Shown: piece by piece, positions 24,601-57,336 of the stretch
Position numbering within the stretch: position 1 is the stretch's first letter
Layout: the number at the start of each line of letters is the position of its first letter
From: a virus
Direction: 5' to 3' (one strand)
Virus record (IMG/VR): IMGVR_UViG_3300036446_000021
Length of the DNA: 64,000 bases
The notes under the pieces: generated by a model
What the model was told of the DNA's origin: nothing
Seen by the model: only the letters and a program-made list of their open reading frames with translations
Databases searched by the model: none
Made by a program: the position numbers and the translations under genes

Positions 24601-25990
24601 AAACACTGCCCAGTGCTTCTCCTAGTGGTTGTAAAGCTTTAACCAGGATACTGCCTGCGGTTTGCACTTTTTCAGAGATGCCAACTGCGAAATCAGCGAC
24701 ACTGGTCAGCAGCTTTTCAAGTTCTGGCTGAGCTTTCTGGAGGCTGATGAGAATTCGATTCAGTGGTTCAAGGATAGCATCTAGGATCGGTGCCCCCGCT
24801 TTCTGCGTGACGACCTCAAAGACCTCTTGCACGTTTGAAGTTAGTCCGGCGAAGCCTCTAGCCGCTAATTCCTGCCCTGCTACTAGCGCCTTTGTGCGTT
24901 GGTCAATGTACTCGTACAACCTGCCTTGAGCAATGAGCGATCGCGCCTTTTCGTTATTCAATTCCAGCGTTTTCGCCAGTGTGTTAAAGGTCGGATCGAT
25001 TTGTAGGTTCGCAATCTGCGCGATGTATGTCTGTGCCTGCCCCAGTGGTAAACCTAGCGTGGTAGCAGAGGCATTGAGTTTGATGGTGACTTTTTCGGCT
25101 TGCTCCAGGTTGATACCCAAGGCGTTTGCCTGCTGCGCAACTAGCTTAAACGACTCCACCAGTTCGGAAGACGTGATGCCGCTAAGCTGTAGTGAATCAA
25201 GGCGGATTTGATCAATTTGGCGTTGTACTTCTGGTAGGACGGTTTGGATTGCTTTCACCGGATCGGTGACATTCTCGCCACCGATCGACACTTGCTGTAC
25301 GTTCGCTAGCAGAGCTGACAAACCCAATGTCTGCTCTCTGAGTCTGACGTTTTGACCAATTAGCAAGTTAAACGCTTGTCCGCCAGTTTGTGCTAGTCGT
25401 TGGGCGGCATTGGTGGCCTCGTTAAAAGCAAAAGCCACCCCTGCGATCGGTGTTTTAGCTAAATTAGCCAGATCGCCAAGACTACTGAACAACCCCTCCA
25501 CAGGTTTTGTCTTTTCTTCAAGTGACTGTGTTCTTAACGCTGCTGCTTGCGCTCGTGACTGCGCTGCTGCTGCATTGGCTGTTGCCTGGATCGCCCTTGC
25601 CTTTTCCGTTTCCAGCTTCACCGCTTGCTGGTCAACCTGGATCGCTTCTTTCTGTGTTTTCAGTCGTTCAGTTTCGGTTCTTGCTGCCTGTTGACTAGTT
25701 TTCTCTTGTTCGGCAGTGGCTTTAGCTAATTGCTGCGCAGCCTTGGCAGTCTCAGCCGCAACTTTCGCCCCTTCCTTCGCTGCTCGATTCTGTTCTGTCG
25801 TCTGGTTCAGTTTCTGAAACTCTTGAGCAAGCTGGCGAATGGAGTCGATCGCGCCGCCAAACGTGAACGGGGTAGTGGCGATCGCGTTAATCTGCGTTTG
25901 AATTTGACTCAAGGATTCAATTCCTTGAGTCGATATTTGCAAAATAAGATCTAAAGTTCTTGAGCTTGCCAAGCTCGAATTCCCTGTCAA
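21626..25990 (-). CDS. Tail tape measure protein
   Basis: 1454 aa, Ala/Gln/Leu-rich helical, central hydrophobic stretch (LLLQIGLLAAIVAPLVPTILAVV), long coiled coils; downstream of tube and chaperone genes. Confidence 0.88.
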   Translation of the reverse strand: MTGNSSLASSRTLDLILQISTQGIESLSQIQTQINAIATTPFTFGGAIDSIRQLAQEFQKLNQTTEQNRAAKEGAKVAAETAKAAQQLAKATAEQEKTSQQAARTETERLKTQKEAIQVDQQAVKLETEKARAIQATANAAAAQSRAQAAALRTQSLEEKTKPVEGLFSSLGDLANLAKTPIAGVAFAFNEATNAAQRLAQTGGQAFNLLIGQNVRLREQTLGLSALLANVQQVSIGGENVTDPVKAIQTVLPEVQRQIDQIRLDSLQLSGITSSELVESFKLVAQQANALGINLEQAEKVTIKLNASATTLGLPLGQAQTYIAQIANLQIDPTFNTLAKTLELNNEKARSLIAQGRLYEYIDQRTKALVAGQELAARGFAGLTSNVQEVFEVVTQKAGAPILDAILEPLNRILISLQKAQPELEKLLTSVADFAVGISEKVQTAGSILVKALQPLGEALGSVLKAGGESLGGILNSLADAFVATATAIAPLLSIVGELAKVFASFASTDIGRLLLQIGLLAAIVAPLVPTILAVVAVVSSAVGAITAVSTALPLLIGLLTPTAAGLGAVALSAALAAAPLVALAAALALIVTGFEAVKLAAVNDAIETLSESTNRLADESLNYAQRLKSLNDIEKNGGKLTEEQIALKKQLLSLTAGTKQSIEQQIADLKALQPANQEQANALKVQIALLEQRAKLLSGQANVGLGNRALQDLGKTKDLIDQSLKGAQTDLLNPAKAEDAAKRVQEFTQTALDAGRITRSEAAKNLEALQNNQGLELKTRLSAQKALTDLLQKGADEEVATLKTKEKTIESDLKAGRLSQIEGERQLTVAKAEELDKQLALNAEGIKRELELTGGRSSPRLVALRREEAELQGQRSAISEDGNRKRAQAEQTAADNELKILEGKRVSGKLSEEAFANESLAITKRRLALEQQELERQRGLLKPGDKAGQQAIDAQEAALNSKREAAEEQFQSRKLAIVERAQKKAEDAAKLSEISRNTEIDQLIAARQIRESEAGLLRVQTSRQTIAKELELEKEKTAALEKLPKVSDPVKEEERQQKIRASRIRTAELADSLVKNEIEQQEALFRVVSERLDRQAQAAKNAAEGQVQPLQAQLQLQDALSKSLENQNKLLEARKGLQNALTGFAESSLALLQKSGASEKDQQTATLLIAAQKFAALQRQQQLEQQTLNIQLRQNAAALEREKIQNRISQIQNQADQAQAAADLAKAKADPNARLNPEAIRAAELNLQAKQAAGLGLQLQGAELNDRGRVEAQTAAAQQQALQITQRTQTQQARSALIEALPDDGAKQEARFRLQQEVLSGSGFGVTSLGDINTDRIRQAAITGQGNLGLPGILNPLAAPSAFVSSPQVLALQQQLSGLIKGQTAIAPITSNNNSPQLQSTLDKLNATIEAGQARPIQATVNNTIAGPDASQVVDLATKRMTDNLIGVLGRVN

Positions 25991-26026
25991 GACTACAATA
26001 GACGAGGGAAATTAGAATCTTCTCAA

Positions 26027-26058
26027 TTATGCCCTCTAGATTGCTCTAGAGGGCATAA
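26027..26058. terminator. Perfect 14-bp inverted repeat (terminator, RNA end stem or operator)
   Basis: TTATGCCCTCTAGA-ttgc-TCTAGAGGGCATAA. Confidence 0.7.
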
Positions 26059-26064
26059 CTTTTA

Positions 26065-26173
26065 CTGCCATAATAAACCGCACCTCAGCGCACCCCGCCT
26101 GACCACTACGCACCACAACTTGCCAGGTCATACCAAACCCAACAAACCTCGTCCTACCTGATATCGCCATGCC
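26065..26173 (-). repeat. GGY-NN pentamer array 2, putative guide-type ncRNA
   Basis: Minus strand: GGCAT GGCGA TATCA GGTAG GACGA GGTTT GTTG GGTTT GGTAT GACCT GGCAA GTTGT GGTGC GTAGT GGTCA GGCGG GGTGC GCTGA GGTGC GGTTT ATTAT GGCAG; 14 of 21 pentamers start with exact GGY; one 4-nt unit shifts the register. Confidence 0.85.
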
Positions 26174-26206
26174 ACAAATATCAGTATGGCTTTTTATAGT
26201 CCATGG

Positions 26207-27316
26207 TTATTCAAAACTTTGGCATCTTGAACTTGGAAGTAAACGGAAACCATAGATTCCCGCCAACCCTAGATATTCAAGATTCTTGGAAGCATTAAAA
26301 TCAGCATGGTCAGCATGATTGCAATTCACGCACAAGAATCTATCGCCTCTACGGTTTCGCCTGTCCCACTTGCCACAAGCGTAGCAGCGCTGCGAAGTCT
26401 TCCAGGGGTCTTTGCGTTGAACCTCAATCCCCTTAACTTCACAATGGCGCTGCAACAAACTTGCAGCATAGGCATACAGCCAATGAGACAACCGCCTGTT
26501 AAACCTGCGAGAGAACGTCCCTCGTTTGCCAGATTTAACTTTCTTCAAATCTTCAATGACAAGCACTTTGATCTGAGAGAAATCTATTTGCTTAATCGCC
26601 TGACCCAGCCAGGATTTAATCTCTGCTCTGGTGTGTTTTTGGCGCTTTGCAAAGCCTTGAATCAGATGGTACAACTCGGTGCCTACGTTCTGCCCATCCG
26701 AGAATACCAATCCATTTTTATAGTTAGAGTCCATCCCCACTACCCGTCCTTCAGTCTTGGGTGTAGGTCGTTTTTTCTCCAGCAGAAGGTCGATAAAAAG
26801 TCTGCCTTTCCTCATCCCCAGTCGAATTGTTTGCCGCAAGTTCCAACCATCCGCCAGCTTCTCATTCAGCGGCTTAGTCGATGGAATCGGAACGGTCAAC
26901 CCTTTGGGAGCGCCAGAGCCAGTGAAGCGAACTGCCCAATTAAAGCCATTCCCTCGAAATGGCTCAACGCTAACGAAGTGATAGAACAATGTCACGACTT
27001 GGCGCTGCAAATTGGGCTTACGCTTCTTAATCCTCTTACGCTGACTGGCAACGACTTCACCGCCCTGTTTTGCCAAAGCCTGACTCAATCGAGTCGTCGC
27101 CCCGAACCGCTTCACAGCACGGTGAGCGGTAGACAAATCAGCCAGCTTGCCGCGAAAGTCTTGCCGCCGCCAATACAGGTCAACGAAGTACTGCATGATG
27201 TCATGGCAGCGATGCAGGAAGGCTTTCAAAACCTCTTGCTTTCCTTGATTCAGGTCATTCAGATAAACCCGATACGACCGAGACATCATTCCTTTGTCAC
27301 GCCGCGCTGCCATCAC
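26207..27316 (-). CDS. tnpB: IS607-associated TnpB RNA-guided nuclease
   Basis: VVGMDSN (RuvC-I), VIEDLKKV (RuvC-II), TSQRCYACG and CVNCNH zinc finger, HADFNASKN (RuvC-III); alternative start ATG 27289. Confidence 0.88.
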   Translation of the reverse strand: MMAARRDKGMMSRSYRVYLNDLNQGKQEVLKAFLHRCHDIMQYFVDLYWRRQDFRGKLADLSTAHRAVKRFGATTRLSQALAKQGGEVVASQRKRIKKRKPNLQRQVVTLFYHFVSVEPFRGNGFNWAVRFTGSGAPKGLTVPIPSTKPLNEKLADGWNLRQTIRLGMRKGRLFIDLLLEKKRPTPKTEGRVVGMDSNYKNGLVFSDGQNVGTELYHLIQGFAKRQKHTRAEIKSWLGQAIKQIDFSQIKVLVIEDLKKVKSGKRGTFSRRFNRRLSHWLYAYAASLLQRHCEVKGIEVQRKDPWKTSQRCYACGKWDRRNRRGDRFLCVNCNHADHADFNASKNLEYLGLAGIYGFRLLPSSRCQSFE

Positions 27317-27909
27317 TCCGTCTCCTCAATCGCTTTGATTGCAGCCTCAGTCTTTTTACGTCCTCTGCGTTGCCCATACAACCTTGCTGCAAAGCTCGTA
27401 ATCACAGCTACCAAATCTTCCATCAAATCATGGGTGCAATTATCTGAAAGGTTCACCACTTCGATTTTGAATGGGCAAAGAGACTCAAACCAACGGAATC
27501 CAAAGCGGGTTAAGCGGTCTTTATTTTCAATCAGGAGTACGTCAAAGTTTTGGTCTTTCAATAGTTTGTGGAGCTTTTTGCGATCGTCATTCATCCCAGA
27601 GGCAAACTCTTTCGTTGTCGAAATGATTTGGTATCCCTTGGCGATGGCGTACCGGGTTAAGCCGTCTACCTGCGAGTCCATTGCCGCTTTATTTTCAGAT
27701 GACGACTCTCTGGCATATAGGGCGCATTTAACCCCGCTACTGGCAGGGGCTTCACCTAGCTGCTCTGCCAGCCAATATCCAGGAATAAAAACATGCCCTG
27801 ATTCAGATTTAAGGCTAGGCGCTTTCCCTGCATACACCCACCGTCTGAGTGTCCATGGGTTTACGCCTAGCATCTTTGCCGCTTTAGTAAGCTTGTACCT
27901 TTGCTCCAT
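27313..27909 (-). CDS. tnpA: IS607-family transposase TnpA (MerR-like HTH + serine recombinase)
   Basis: AAKMLGVNPWTLRRW, ALYARESS, FASGMN, ENKDRLTRFGF, DLMEDLVAVITSFAARLYGQR. Confidence 0.93.
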   Translation of the reverse strand: MEQRYKLTKAAKMLGVNPWTLRRWVYAGKAPSLKSESGHVFIPGYWLAEQLGEAPASSGVKCALYARESSSENKAAMDSQVDGLTRYAIAKGYQIISTTKEFASGMNDDRKKLHKLLKDQNFDVLLIENKDRLTRFGFRWFESLCPFKIEVVNLSDNCTHDLMEDLVAVITSFAARLYGQRRGRKKTEAAIKAIEETE

Positions 27910-27957
27910 ACCTCAAAGTATAGCAAAGAAAGTCAAAGTTATGGAGAATTAGTTATC

Positions 27958-28047
27958 ATGCCAAGTCTTAACTCAGCAAACCCGACCCAACCAGATCTCG
28001 TCAAACCGGATTTGACCCTGGCAAACCGTACCGAACCTTGCCAAACC
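27958..28047 (-). repeat. GGY-NN pentamer array 1, putative guide-type ncRNA
   Basis: Minus strand, 18 in-phase units: GGTTT GGCAA GGTTC GGTAC GGTTT GCCAG GGTCA AATCC GGTTT GACGA GATCT GGTTG GGTCG GGTTT GCTGA GTTAA GACTT GGCAT; 17/18 start with G, 18/18 have a pyrimidine at position 3, 11/18 exact GGY; bracketed by TGATAACT copies exactly 100 nt apart (27951-27958, 28051-28058). Confidence 0.9.
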
Positions 28048-28055
28048 TCAAGTTA

Positions 28056-28685
28056 TCAGTCTAATCCAACTTGAAAACTGGTTACAACAAACCGACCGTA
28101 AGTAGGGCGAAAATCAGCAACGCCAATAAGCTTCCCAGCCATTGTCAGAACATCCATGAAGTCTACAGGTCGAATGTACTCAGGGACATTTACCAAAAAA
28201 CTAATCTCGCACTTCCAGCCGGCTTTAAGCGCTGGTCTTGTTCTTGTTATACCAGCCCTTTGCACAGTTACACGGCACTTGTGTTCGTAGTCCCATGCAC
28301 TTACACCCAAAGGCGCAAGTGGAGTCAACGCAACAATCCCAGCCTTGTATAAATCCATAGCCGATTTTCGCGGAGATCGTGGGTCTTGCCTGAATTTAGC
28401 GGCATTAATTACAGCCATCCTGAAATATTCGCCAGGGATGCACAATATACCTTCATCATCTCGATAAACATAACTTTCGATATTGTCTGATTTTTTGGTT
28501 TTAGACCCTTTCGCTGCATTCGCTTTTGCCTCTACCTCTTCACAATTCCAGCGATGAAATAGAATATCAGCCACGCCTTCAAGCTTGACAGTAGCAATAT
28601 ATGGCTGACAAAGCTCCAATACTTCAAGCGCCCCATTCGTAACTTCAGGGCCAACCGCTGTCGCAACAATACCGTTTTTGACCAT
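28056..28685 (-). CDS. Stand-alone Cas7/RAMP-like protein
   Basis: CIPGEYFRMAVINAAK resembles the RAMP IPGSSLKGALR helix; RTRP...W...F.V; C-terminal Gly-loop-like AGKLIGVADFRPTYGRFVV; no other cas gene in the window. Confidence 0.72.
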   Translation of the reverse strand: MVKNGIVATAVGPEVTNGALEVLELCQPYIATVKLEGVADILFHRWNCEEVEAKANAAKGSKTKKSDNIESYVYRDDEGILCIPGEYFRMAVINAAKFRQDPRSPRKSAMDLYKAGIVALTPLAPLGVSAWDYEHKCRVTVQRAGITRTRPALKAGWKCEISFLVNVPEYIRPVDFMDVLTMAGKLIGVADFRPTYGRFVVTSFQVGLD

Positions 28686-28791
28686 TGAAAACCTCGCAAT
28701 TAACTATTAACAGTATAGCATTATTATGCCATAGCAGTATCGTAGACGTGTTTAATTTAGTGCTGTAGCATGATAGTGGTACTATTTTGAG
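28686..28791. promoter_or_regulatory. Divergent promoter/operator region between the Cas7-like gene and an Xre gene
   Basis: AT-rich; palindromes TGCT-GT-AGCA (28761-28770) and ATAGT-GGT-ACTAT (28773-28785); ATAGCA direct repeat (28715, 28731). Confidence 0.5.
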
Positions 28792-29013
28792 ATGGTCGTG
28801 AAAAATCTTGTTGCAAAGGCTCTTCAGGAAAGAGAAATGACGCGTTATAGGTTTTGGCAAAAAACCGGATTAGCGCGTGTTACAGCGTATCGTCTGGTAG
28901 ACGACCCGTTGTATGTACCTGGCGGTGACGTATGGGAGAAAGTCTGTGCGGCTTTAGATTGCCAGCCTGGCGAATTATTAATTAGAGAAATTGAAAACAA
29001 TAACTTAAGCTAG
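28792..29013 (+). CDS. Cro/C1-type (Xre) HTH regulator
   Basis: LQEREMTRYRFWQKTGLARVTAYRL...WEKVCAALDCQPGELL. Confidence 0.85.
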   Translation: MVVKNLVAKALQEREMTRYRFWQKTGLARVTAYRLVDDPLYVPGGDVWEKVCAALDCQPGELLIREIENNNLS

Positions 29014-29029
29014 TCAATCGCCTAAAGAA

Positions 29030-29446
29030 CTACCGTCGCTGTCCGCTTTGCACAGGTTTGGGTTTGCCAGCCTTGGGTGTGGTCGTCACTTGCTGCAACT
29101 GGCTAAAAACCTGCAAGATTTCCTCAACGGTCAAGTTGAACGTCACGTCCTCCTGCTTCGATCCATTGGGCAAGAGGATCAACCGATAGTCGCACAGCAG
29201 TGGGTCGAGTTCTGGTATCAACGCTTTAAGGCTGTAGGCAAGACGATAGTGGTTAGACGGGTCGCTAAGACGCTGTAAGACCAGTTCGGCGTAGTCATTG
29301 CCTAAGGGTGTACCCGGTTGAATTGGTCTACCATGTTTGTCCGTACCTAACACCGTTGCTAAAGGCACCATCTTGATCTCAGAGAGGTTAACGGGCGTGT
29401 TGATGGTGTAGGTGCGATCGCGCAACTTCAGTTCAATCGACGGCAT
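29030..29446 (-). CDS. Probable tail assembly chaperone
   Basis: Position between the tail tube and tape measure genes; size. Confidence 0.45.
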   Translation of the reverse strand: MPSIELKLRDRTYTINTPVNLSEIKMVPLATVLGTDKHGRPIQPGTPLGNDYAELVLQRLSDPSNHYRLAYSLKALIPELDPLLCDYRLILLPNGSKQEDVTFNLTVEEILQVFSQLQQVTTTPKAGKPKPVQSGQRR

Positions 29447-30158
29447 CTGGTTCTAACTCCTGTGCGATTGCATGTTGTTGGATTAACTTTTGACGTTCGG
29501 TTTTGTCCCACCACTTCACCTGATAGGTACGGCGTTCGTACTCTTCAGCGTTCTCTTGCTTCCAACCGTCATAACTGCGTTTTAGGCTTTCCATTACCCG
29601 TTGTTCAGGGTCTTTCTGAAGTTCGCTATGAGTGTAAAGGAACTTGTCAAGCCCTTCGATCGGGAAGTGTTCATACAGCCATAAACCCATCTCCCACCCG
29701 AACCCATTGGCTAAGTTGGCAATCGTGTCATAGTCGTAGTCGCCTGACGATGGAAACGGCAGATCATCAACTGTGATCGGGTCGTCTGGGCTTTTGACCC
29801 GTTCTGCCTTGGGTTGTGGTGTGAAGGTGTGCAACGCAACTAACAACGAAGGCTCTAGCACCTCTGCAACCACTTGCCCAAAAAACAAGCGTTCAAGCAG
29901 GTTGATGTCGGTTTTCAACGCTTCCACTTGTAATGGCAAAGCGTTTTCAGCGGGAATGATGGCTGCGATCGCCTCTACCAAGCCCCACCCCTTTGGGTCT
30001 TCTGCGAGCAACTCAGTCATCTGCCCTAACTCCACCCACGCTTGCACCAATTCATTGAGGAGCAATTGCATCAAAGTAAGGCGCGATCGCGGTACCGGGT
30101 AAATAACCGCAATTGCGCCTGTTTGATAGCGCAGCACACAGGGTTGACCAAACGGCAT
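29433..30158 (-). CDS. Probable tail assembly chaperone
   Basis: Directly downstream of the tail tube gene with 1-nt overlap; assignment by position. Confidence 0.45.
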   Translation of the reverse strand: MPFGQPCVLRYQTGAIAVIYPVPRSRLTLMQLLLNELVQAWVELGQMTELLAEDPKGWGLVEAIAAIIPAENALPLQVEALKTDINLLERLFFGQVVAEVLEPSLLVALHTFTPQPKAERVKSPDDPITVDDLPFPSSGDYDYDTIANLANGFGWEMGLWLYEHFPIEGLDKFLYTHSELQKDPEQRVMESLKRSYDGWKQENAEEYERRTYQVKWWDKTERQKLIQQHAIAQELEPDAVD

Positions 30159-55941: not shown

Positions 55942-56007
55942 AGTCTAGCCTTCAATTATACTATCATGAAGTGATAATATTTCGATTATAGACATATTAT
56001 TACCAGC

Positions 56008-57336
56008 ATGATATTGGGATACGCTCGCGAATCGACGCTTAAAGCGGAGCAAGATCAAGCTCTAGCTTGGCAAATACAGCGGCTACAGCGGTATGGCTGC
56101 GATCGCATCCTTACCGATCGTATGAGTGGAGCCAGCAAAAAGCGACCTGGCTACAAAGAACTACTAGCACTAATCGATTCAGACAACGTTACAGAGGTGG
56201 TCGTTTGCTCGGTTACCAGGCTAGGGCGATCAACTCGTCAAATGGTAGATGCGATCGATCTCTTTGCTGAGAAGAAAGTTAAATTTACTTCACTTGACGG
56301 CAAAATTGACATTGACACAGCATCAGGCAGGGCAAACGTACAGATGCAAGCTGTTTTTGCACAGCTAGAGCGCGAGTTAATCCAAGAAAGGATCAACGCG
56401 GGCTACGACGGCATCCGAGCAAATAGAATGCCGATTCACGCCCCCTTTGGCTACAGAATCATTGACAAGCGGTTAGAAATCGATGTAGACGTGGAAACCA
56501 TTGCACGGTGGATACGGCAATCAGTCATTGATGTTGGCCTGATCAAAACGACTCAAGCCATAAACCTCAATCACAAAGATTTGACTAAGATCCCACGATC
56601 GCCTGGCGGCATCAAGACCTGGCTGCAATGCGAGACTATCTACGGCAACCTTTGGTACGACCGTCACAATCGACGGGGCAAAACAAAAATTTACTACAAC
56701 AACCATCCTGCCCTTTTCACTCAGCAAGAGCGTTTAGAAGTTGAAGAGTCTTTAAGCTTTCGGCAAAAACATCATGGTTTCAAGTCTGATCCAGTGCGGT
56801 TTCCCTTAACTGGCTTAATCTATTGTGCTGAGTGTGGCAGCAGTATGTCTGTCTCCTATAAGCACGATCGGGTTAACCCCATAGTTTATTACCGTTGCTA
56901 TAAAGGAGTGCGGCGATCGTGCCCTAACAATAAGTACATGAATACTGACAACATTCAAAAAGCAATCATTATCGCTTTAGTAGACAGATCTGAAACCATT
57001 GCTGCACGAGCCATTCAAGCAGAACAAAAAGTAGCTGAAAACCCTGGGCTTTTGGAGCTTAGAAAACAATTGATTGCTTTAGTAAAGCTGCCTACAAACT
57101 TTCATATCGAGGCCGCGATCGCAGGTATTCAATCCGATATAGCTGAAATCGAAGTTGCTGCGTCTAAACAAGAAATTACGCTACAGCCGGATAGAGAGAA
57201 AGCATTAAAAGCATGTTCTAATCCAACTTTCTGGATTGAGCTAAAACCAGAAGACAAGCATTCAATTTACCGACTACTTGTGAAGCGAGTGGTTTGCCGA
57301 AGGAACAGCATCGAAACTGTTGAGCTTTGGGTCTAG
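56008..57336 (+). CDS. Large serine recombinase (phage integrase)
   Basis: LGYARES catalytic motif, DRMSGA, VTRLGR, ERELIQER, APFGY, zinc ribbon CAECG...YYRC...C, coiled coil. Confidence 0.92.
   Translation: MILGYARESTLKAEQDQALAWQIQRLQRYGCDRILTDRMSGASKKRPGYKELLALIDSDNVTEVVVCSVTRLGRSTRQMVDAIDLFAEKKVKFTSLDGKIDIDTASGRANVQMQAVFAQLERELIQERINAGYDGIRANRMPIHAPFGYRIIDKRLEIDVDVETIARWIRQSVIDVGLIKTTQAINLNHKDLTKIPRSPGGIKTWLQCETIYGNLWYDRHNRRGKTKIYYNNHPALFTQQERLEVEESLSFRQKHHGFKSDPVRFPLTGLIYCAECGSSMSVSYKHDRVNPIVYYRCYKGVRRSCPNNKYMNTDNIQKAIIIALVDRSETIAARAIQAEQKVAENPGLLELRKQLIALVKLPTNFHIEAAIAGIQSDIAEIEVAASKQEITLQPDREKALKACSNPTFWIELKPEDKHSIYRLLVKRVVCRRNSIETVELWV

Follow-up and report, generated by a model that had tools for sequence, protein, structure and literature searches.

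The 64,000-nucleotide (nt) stretch of viral DNA examined here (IMG/VR record IMGVR_UViG_3300036446_000021; the window in what follows) carries on its minus strand a gene for a 209-amino-acid (aa) Vipr-family protein, followed by two arrays of pentameric repeats. We conclude that this locus is very probably a Viral Interference Programmable Repeat (VIPR) system, at a probability of about 0.88. It forms a moron-like cassette of a cyanobacterial prophage of 102 kb, and an IS607 insertion sequence (IS) lies between the two guide arrays.

The first descriptions of VIPR systems date from April 2026 (bioRxiv 10.64898/2026.04.26.720920; structures in 10.64898/2026.04.26.720927), and two follow-up preprints appeared in October 2026 (bioRxiv 10.64898/2026.10.15.759431, 10.64898/2026.10.21.760802). 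Their guides, termed vrRNAs, consist of 9–16 YNNGG repeats and then a structured tail, and Vipr protomers, one to each repeat, assemble into a helical filament that sequesters the GGY nucleotides and presents the NN dinucleotides (bioRxiv 10.64898/2026.04.26.720920, 10.64898/2026.04.26.720927). These dinucleotides then base-pair with double-stranded DNA in an NNx reading that skips one base, and competing phages and satellites are transcriptionally silenced (bioRxiv 10.64898/2026.04.26.720920, 10.64898/2026.04.26.720927). Seven types (I–VII) are distinguished, which differ in their vap genes (bioRxiv 10.64898/2026.04.26.720920). The initial annotation of the window had named this system, and the name, the GGY/NN mechanism and the silencing of competitors all agree with the preprints.

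The Vipr protein and its pentamer arrays

The vipr gene (28056..28685, minus strand) is an intact 209-aa open reading frame (ORF) whose product belongs to the Vipr family of RAMP (Cas7-like) proteins. The protein matches no family in Pfam, NCBIfam or PADLOC, and its sole PHROGs family is phrog_4652, whose function is unknown (E 3.9e-14). Its relatives number 6,924 in a protein collection clustered at 90%, with 966 representatives at 50% identity. In IMG/VR, 357 contigs encode relatives. The best protein identity to the window protein is 75%, and in the closest relatives (73% identity) an array likewise starts directly after the stop codon. When the protein was searched as a single sequence against the chains of the PDB, it matched 36pp_D, annotated as 'SUSP1 Vipr protein', at E 2.6e-4. 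This match strengthens to E 8.6e-10 with a profile of 24 homologues and to E 1.8e-17 with a profile of 71 homologues, the latter aligning residues 32–205 of the query to residues 5–189 of the 202 in the chain.

The 71-sequence alignment yielded an AlphaFold2 model (pLDDT 93.8, pTM 0.85) displaying the RRM core, thumb and glycine-rich loop that define the RAMP fold, the last of these being GVADFRPTYGRF at residues 188–199. The initial annotation had called the ORF RAMP-like and had proposed a structural comparison with Cas7 and Csm3, and the fold is indeed of the Cas7 type: a Foldseek search of solved structures with release dates to 8 April 2026 places only Csm3, Cmr4, type VII Cas7 or Cas7-11 chains in its top 50 (E values to 3.9e-7, probability 1.00, TM scores of ~0.5, identities of 10–14%). 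Among the clusters of the AlphaFold database the first-ranked match is X1U2U4 (E 1.4e-16, TM 0.76/0.89, 26% identity), and ranks 1–4 and 8 are occupied by X1U2U4, A0A661D0E2, A0A0F9A1L0, A0A1F4YLN4 and A0A2D6XG06. These same five entries are the founding Vipr hits, with X1U2U4 as the PSI-BLAST seed (bioRxiv 10.64898/2026.04.26.720920). In the ESM Atlas, which includes the window protein itself, the matches are mostly viral clusters at TM ~0.75, and a cluster of Csm3 and other RAMPs is found at TM 0.61.

The residues that grip the guide are also retained. In the SUSP1 Vipr structure, determined by cryogenic electron microscopy, H17 and D177 contact the first G of the repeat, R138 and W178 contact the second, and E71, M72 and R179 contact the pyrimidine (bioRxiv 10.64898/2026.04.26.720927). 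HMMER alignments place H17, E71, M72, R138, D177, W178 and R179 opposite H44, E86, Y87, R150, D191, F192 and R193 of the window protein, respectively, and these aligned residues are invariant or more than 90% conserved across homologues. The exchange of W178 for F192 is conservative, and K33 of SUSP1 Vipr has no confidently placed counterpart. By its sequence, fold and contact residues, the 209-aa protein is a Vipr.

The repeat tract of vrRNA1 (27961..28050, minus strand) begins 5 nt past the vipr stop codon (TGA, 28058–28056, followed by TAACT) and comprises 18 YNNGG-type pentamers, from TGAGG to CTTGG. The first position is a pyrimidine in 18/18 units and the fourth is G in 17/18, and the fifth is G in only 11/18. 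Its NN code reads GA TT AA TC AC TT AG CA CC TT GA CT TG CG TT GA AA TT. Over a window of 19 units this array reaches 48/57, whereas the maximum in first-order Markov simulations of both strands of the 64-kb window was 33.9 ± 1.2 and never exceeded 38. The repeat tract of vrRNA2 (26068..26176, minus strand) consists of six pentamers (26176–26147), a 4-nt slip (26146–26143) and 15 further pentamers (26142–26068). Throughout the 7.28-Mb genome, a score of at least 29/36 over 12 units is reached only by the two window arrays, each counted twice because the prophage is duplicated, and by one borderline repeat in a coding region. Because they are the top two arrays of the genome and exceed the Markov null, they lie far beyond chance. 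A third candidate (C4 ~107892–107980, 29/36) was rejected as a solo vrRNA, since it falls inside an opposite-strand ORF with a Pro/Thr/Ser/Gln-rich repeat and reflects chance or coding periodicity.

The association of gene and array holds across the family. With an array defined as an uninterrupted run of ten units that reaches 26/30 or more and lies between −350 and +300 nt relative to the gene, a same-strand array adjoins the gene at 52 of the 55 loci in species-representative genomes (opposite strand, 1) and at 72 of the 80 IMG/VR loci (opposite strand, 2). In total, 124/135 homologous loci have an adjacent same-strand array, so that the 5-nt periodicity for which the initial annotation had proposed to examine homologues is present. 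Flanks more than 1.5 kb away contain eight same-strand and no opposite-strand clusters in 308 kb. In this clade the median array length is 16 units, with a mean conservation of 0.93 for the pyrimidine, 0.96 for the first G and 0.84 for the second G, and no 3ˊ tail sequence is common to the 369 arrays of the clade. Comparing the variability of NN with that of GGY gave mixed counts in two small sets of related Phycisphaerae arrays, and the window locus is without near-identical relatives. In one group of Phycisphaerae prophages (L005–L021; for example, L005:6683-7054), two vrRNA arrays flank a RusA-like resolvase gene, behind which comes a helicase gene, so that guides and genes for replication and recombination are intermingled.

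The tail of vrRNA2 (26027..26058, minus strand) is a perfect hairpin with a GCAA loop, formed by a 14-bp inverted repeat with a predicted stem of 16 bp (ΔG −26.0 kcal/mol, z −6.1). The presumed tape-measure gene starts 36 nt downstream of this hairpin, whose palindrome is followed by a T-rich run on the plus strand. This hairpin may double as a terminator or attenuator in the tail operon. A search of positions 25000–29500 with Rfam found no family, and hence no hammerhead and no known omega-RNA model. A 13-nt inverted match (27943–27931 with 26066–26054) was discarded as being at chance level for the region.

The IS607 insertion and the ancestral locus

The two arrays are separated by an IS607-family insertion of about 1758 bp (26203..27960, minus strand), which carries tnpA (27909–27313) and tnpB (27316–26207). 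TnpA matches the IS607 transposase model NF033518 at 148 bits (cutoff 110) and contains the Resolvase domain, and TnpB matches guided_TnpB and PF07282. The element thus has the serine-recombinase TnpA with an N-terminal helix-turn-helix (HTH), the TnpB and the defined ends of this family. Its ends were mapped by alignment to related copies from other genomic contexts whose TnpB proteins are 74–79% identical. At the right end, position 26203, five sequences are conserved through ...ATAACCAT and diverge straight after. At the left end, which is placed at ~27960 (± ~7 nt), conservation starts at GCATGATAACTAATTCTCCATAAC (GCATGATAACTAATT), corresponding to about 27961/27960 in the window. Three related IS607 copies (window ~27972–27968; L148, L149) share TTA(A/G) at ~7–9 nt upstream of this point. 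The shared sequence could be a target motif resembling a target-adjacent motif (TAM), or the true left end could lie a few nt further out.

These boundaries redraw the array that the initial annotation had proposed. Its 18 in-phase pentamers are present at 28050–27961. However, the unit it placed last, GGC-AT, is chimeric with the transposon, and the final AT of its NN code is IS607 sequence rather than native. The two copies of TGATAACT that were said to bracket the array do occur 100 nt apart (28058–28051 and 27958–27951), but the distal copy, like the apparent units CATGA and TAACT, is transposon sequence, and the same TGATAACT occurs at the left end of one of two related IS607 copies. As the distal copy is part of the IS607 end, the supposed 100-nt bracket cannot be counted as a guide feature. 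The claim that no nuclease lies nearby applies to the cassette itself but not to its surroundings, where tnpB, a member of a RuvC-type RNA-guided nuclease family, is found ~650 nt downstream as part of the transposon.

The insertion coincides precisely with the 3ˊ end of array 1, and array 2 lies beyond it. The dinucleotide GG is found on both sides of the element (CTTGG|CAT ... CCAT|GGACT), which fits the preference of IS607 for GG targets. Beyond the right end lies the native vrRNA1 3ˊ flank, or vrRNA2 leader (26177..26202, minus strand; GGACTATAAAAAGCCATACTGATATT), which is outside the IS607 homology and contains the 7-mer ACTGATA. Removal of the IS would join array 1 to array 2 via a spacer of 24–26 nt (26 if both GG dinucleotides are kept). 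This arrangement, together with the occurrence of ACTGATA before both native arrays (28060–28054, overlapping the vipr stop codon, and 26185–26179, minus strand), points to an ancestral locus in which vipr was followed by a pair of almost adjoining guide tracts with a single hairpin tail. The 7-mer could represent a processing or 5ˊ-end signal or the trace of a duplication. In Phycisphaerae homologues the ORF likewise ends in GACTGA just ahead of the array.

When further copies of the IS or of the locus were sought at the DNA level, only the tandem copy in the same genome was recovered, and none in 90 genomes of the order or among PLSDB plasmids. The sequence was located in a single DNA sequencing run, labelled as an algae metagenome, and in no RNA run. 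In the DNA run an allele free of the IS was absent, the region being represented by a single variant-free contig. TnpB elements take their guide from the DNA just outside the right end. At this locus, such a guide would be the native vrRNA1 3ˊ flank (26202–26180, minus strand), which is inside the VIPR guide locus.

Mechanism, target searches and competing explanations

Once expressed and processed, each vrRNA would, by homology with SUSP1, be coated by polymerizing Vipr protomers at one per pentamer. The RRM sheet, thumb and G-loop would grip the flipped-out GGY nucleotides through H44, E86, R150, D191, F192 and R193, leaving the exposed NN dinucleotides to pair with double-stranded DNA in an NNxNNx reading that skips every third base, should the rule apply in this clade. 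A competing phage, satellite or prophage is expected to be silenced transcriptionally, since the cassette has neither a nuclease nor a helicase accessory gene of its own. By inserting at the end of the vrRNA1 tract, IS607 has replaced the native 3ˊ flank of this guide and moved vrRNA2 1.76 kb farther from vipr. Even so, vrRNA1 may still work with its altered 3ˊ end.

Target searches applied the published NNx rule with its one skipped base. No site was found in 90 genomes of the order when the full pattern was allowed up to three mismatches, nor in 12 genomes of the genus with 12-unit windows, although two of the patterns used in these searches included the non-native AT unit, which weakened them only slightly. 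Four exact 9-unit seeds searched in IMG/VR and one exact 10-unit seed searched in metagenomes, an approach that is insensitive to mismatches, gave four matches. None of these extends, as only 4–7 of the remaining 18–20 positions agree, which is the chance level. A failure to find targets is expected given how thinly cyanophages have been sampled.

These missing targets nevertheless count against the VIPR interpretation, as do several further points. The skip rule was established in type II systems, whose Vipr proteins are only distantly related to the one in the window. At 54–56% perfect units, both window arrays rank in the 12th–13th percentile among 295 homologous arrays, and 56–62% of their units have the second G, compared to the clade mean given above. 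The native 3ˊ flank of vrRNA1 has been lost to the IS. Finally, there is no accessory vap, given that the cassette has no co-oriented second gene and no conserved vap is present. However, stand-alone vipr genes, as well as simple two-gene operons, without CRISPR repeats have been reported (bioRxiv 10.64898/2026.04.26.720920), and a vap is therefore typical rather than obligatory.

The strongest competing explanation, which we consider unlikely but worth serious attention, is that the system is decaying or already disabled. Under this explanation, vrRNA1 has been cut from its tail, vrRNA2 is uncoupled from the vipr promoter, the repeats are eroding and silencing has been lost. The precise placement of the IS at the boundary of the repeat tract, the lack of significant structure in the present vrRNA1 3ˊ region (z −0.2), the low rank of both arrays for perfect units and the missing targets are all as expected of such a locus. 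On the other hand, the vipr ORF is full length and every contact residue is kept, which speaks against decay. The IS genes have the same orientation as the cassette, so that read-through could yield vrRNA2, and this guide keeps its strong tail hairpin. Internal degeneracy of vrRNAs is frequent (bioRxiv 10.64898/2026.04.26.720920), and many arrays of the clade lack a common tail sequence. The thin sampling of cyanophages predicts missing targets for a working system as well.

A VIPR system remains our preferred reading, and two extensions of it strike us as rather improbable. In the first, the site of IS607 is not accidental and the transposon exploits or rewires the VIPR guide locus. The left end of the IS does mimic the grammar of the array, in that it carries TGATAACT as found at the vipr stop and keeps the pentamer phase for one unit. 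If this were true, the IS might supply a new 3ˊ end for vrRNA1 or drive vrRNA2 by read-through. In the second and separate extension, the YNNGN form of the repeats and the substitution of F for the W that stacks on the second G would mark a variant repeat code in this lineage.

It is improbable that the cassette regulates genes of its own prophage or host rather than those of a competitor. The site of the cassette within the tail operon and its own HTH regulator would suit such a role, and a follow-up paper describes decoy sites in host genomes for satellite vrRNAs. However, when the genome itself was searched at skips of 0–3, the best matches (26/38 for vrRNA1 and 22/32 for vrRNA2) were no better than those of skip-0, skip-2 or shuffled-order controls. 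This result agrees with the absence of self-targeting reported for published VIPR systems (bioRxiv 10.64898/2026.04.26.720920).

The pentamer tract is extremely unlikely to belong to the left end of IS607, as subterminal TnpA-binding repeats for instance, instead of being a guide RNA gene: it does abut the IS, and its last two apparent units belong to the IS, but IS607 homology starts only at ~27961, the upstream flanks of related copies lack pentamer periodicity, a second array lies past the other end of the IS and outside its homology, and the same-strand arrays of the 124 homologous loci occur where there is no IS. Equally, a remnant Cas7 from a degraded class 1 CRISPR-Cas locus beside an unrelated periodicity would explain the match of the fold to Csm3 and Cas7 but can be dismissed, because its nearest structural neighbours are the founding Vipr entries and not Cas7, the family is overwhelmingly viral with period-5 arrays throughout, and, as the initial annotation had stated, the window has no CRISPR array and no other cas gene (searches of the window and neighbouring genes for CRISPR-like repeats, partner cas genes, and PADLOC or other Cas or defence families all came back empty).

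Prophage setting and relationship to known systems

The window contains portal, large terminase, major head protein and integrase genes. Contig C70 carries the 102,201-bp prophage unit in two perfect tandem copies at 100% identity (C70:8024-110235 and C70:110225-212436). An 11-bp att core, CATGAAGTGAT, bounds the prophage units three times (55965–55975 in the window), and a gene for a large serine integrase of 442 aa (56008–57336) adjoins the prophage junction. The perfect tandem is either a double lysogen or the product of assembling replicating phage DNA. The host genome has a photosystem reaction-centre gene, and the relatives of TnpB are cyanobacterial.

The cassette is arranged in the order HTH_26, vipr, vrRNA1, IS, vrRNA2 and hairpin, and it is located between two small tail-chaperone-like genes and the presumed tape-measure gene (1,454 aa). 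The divergent HTH gene (28792..29013, plus strand) encodes a Cro/C1-type protein of 73 aa (PF13443 HTH_26, E 1.7e-12) and is a candidate regulator of the cassette. Its assignment as a vap was rejected because no homologue is found beside other vipr genes. The AT-rich intergenic region between the two divergent genes (28686..28791) presumably serves as the promoter and operator for both. It contains one plus-strand promoter-like site (28700–28727) and no pentamer array.

Among characterized systems, the closest comparison is with the type II VIPR of Escherichia phage SUSP1 (vipr, vap1 and vrRNAs; PDB 36pp). Both have a RAMP protein of ~200 aa with a single RRM, conserved contacts to GGY and adjacent same-strand YNNGG arrays. 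Both are phage-borne, lack a CRISPR array as well as any nuclease of the cassette, and possess at least one guide with a structured 3ˊ tail. In contrast, the window protein is distant, such that a single-sequence alignment covers only its C-terminal third, and the window has a divergent Cro/C1 HTH gene where SUSP1 has vap1. The window arrays are longer, with 18 and ~21 units as opposed to 9–16, and are more relaxed at the second G. The tail in the window is a simple hairpin rather than the pseudoknot of SUSP1, the host is a cyanobacterium, and the array is split by IS607. X1U2U4 and the four other founding entries are the best structural matches to the window Vipr, although their sequence identity to it is low.

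Csm3, Cmr4 and type VII Cas7 resemble the window protein in their RRM core, thumb and G-loop, and in fixed-step polymerization along a guide RNA, which for the window protein is expected by homology. Unlike these proteins, the window Vipr belongs to a viral family and is accompanied by no CRISPR RNA repeats, spacers or partner Cas proteins, its step would be 5 nt with three nucleotides sequestered and two read, and its structural similarity to them remains at the modest TM and identity values noted above. Orphan or solo vrRNA loci (bioRxiv 10.64898/2026.10.15.759431) offer another parallel, in that guide genes occur among phage genes and vrRNA2 stands apart from vipr. However, the effector gene is in the same prophage, 1.9 kb away, and the separation is due to a transposon rather than to the deletion of vipr.

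The locus leaves the known understanding of the VIPR mechanism unchanged. It places VIPR in a cyanobacterial prophage, in a Vipr lineage that is far from the characterized ones of E. coli and Pseudomonas, and it offers a stand-alone vipr that has its own Cro/C1-type regulator and lies within a tail operon, along with two long guides with a relaxed second G. The insertion of IS607 with its TnpB, which parts a guide tract from its 3ˊ flank, amounts to a natural experiment, and the locus can serve as a practical test case for the 1-nt-skip code and for the need of a tail outside type II systems.

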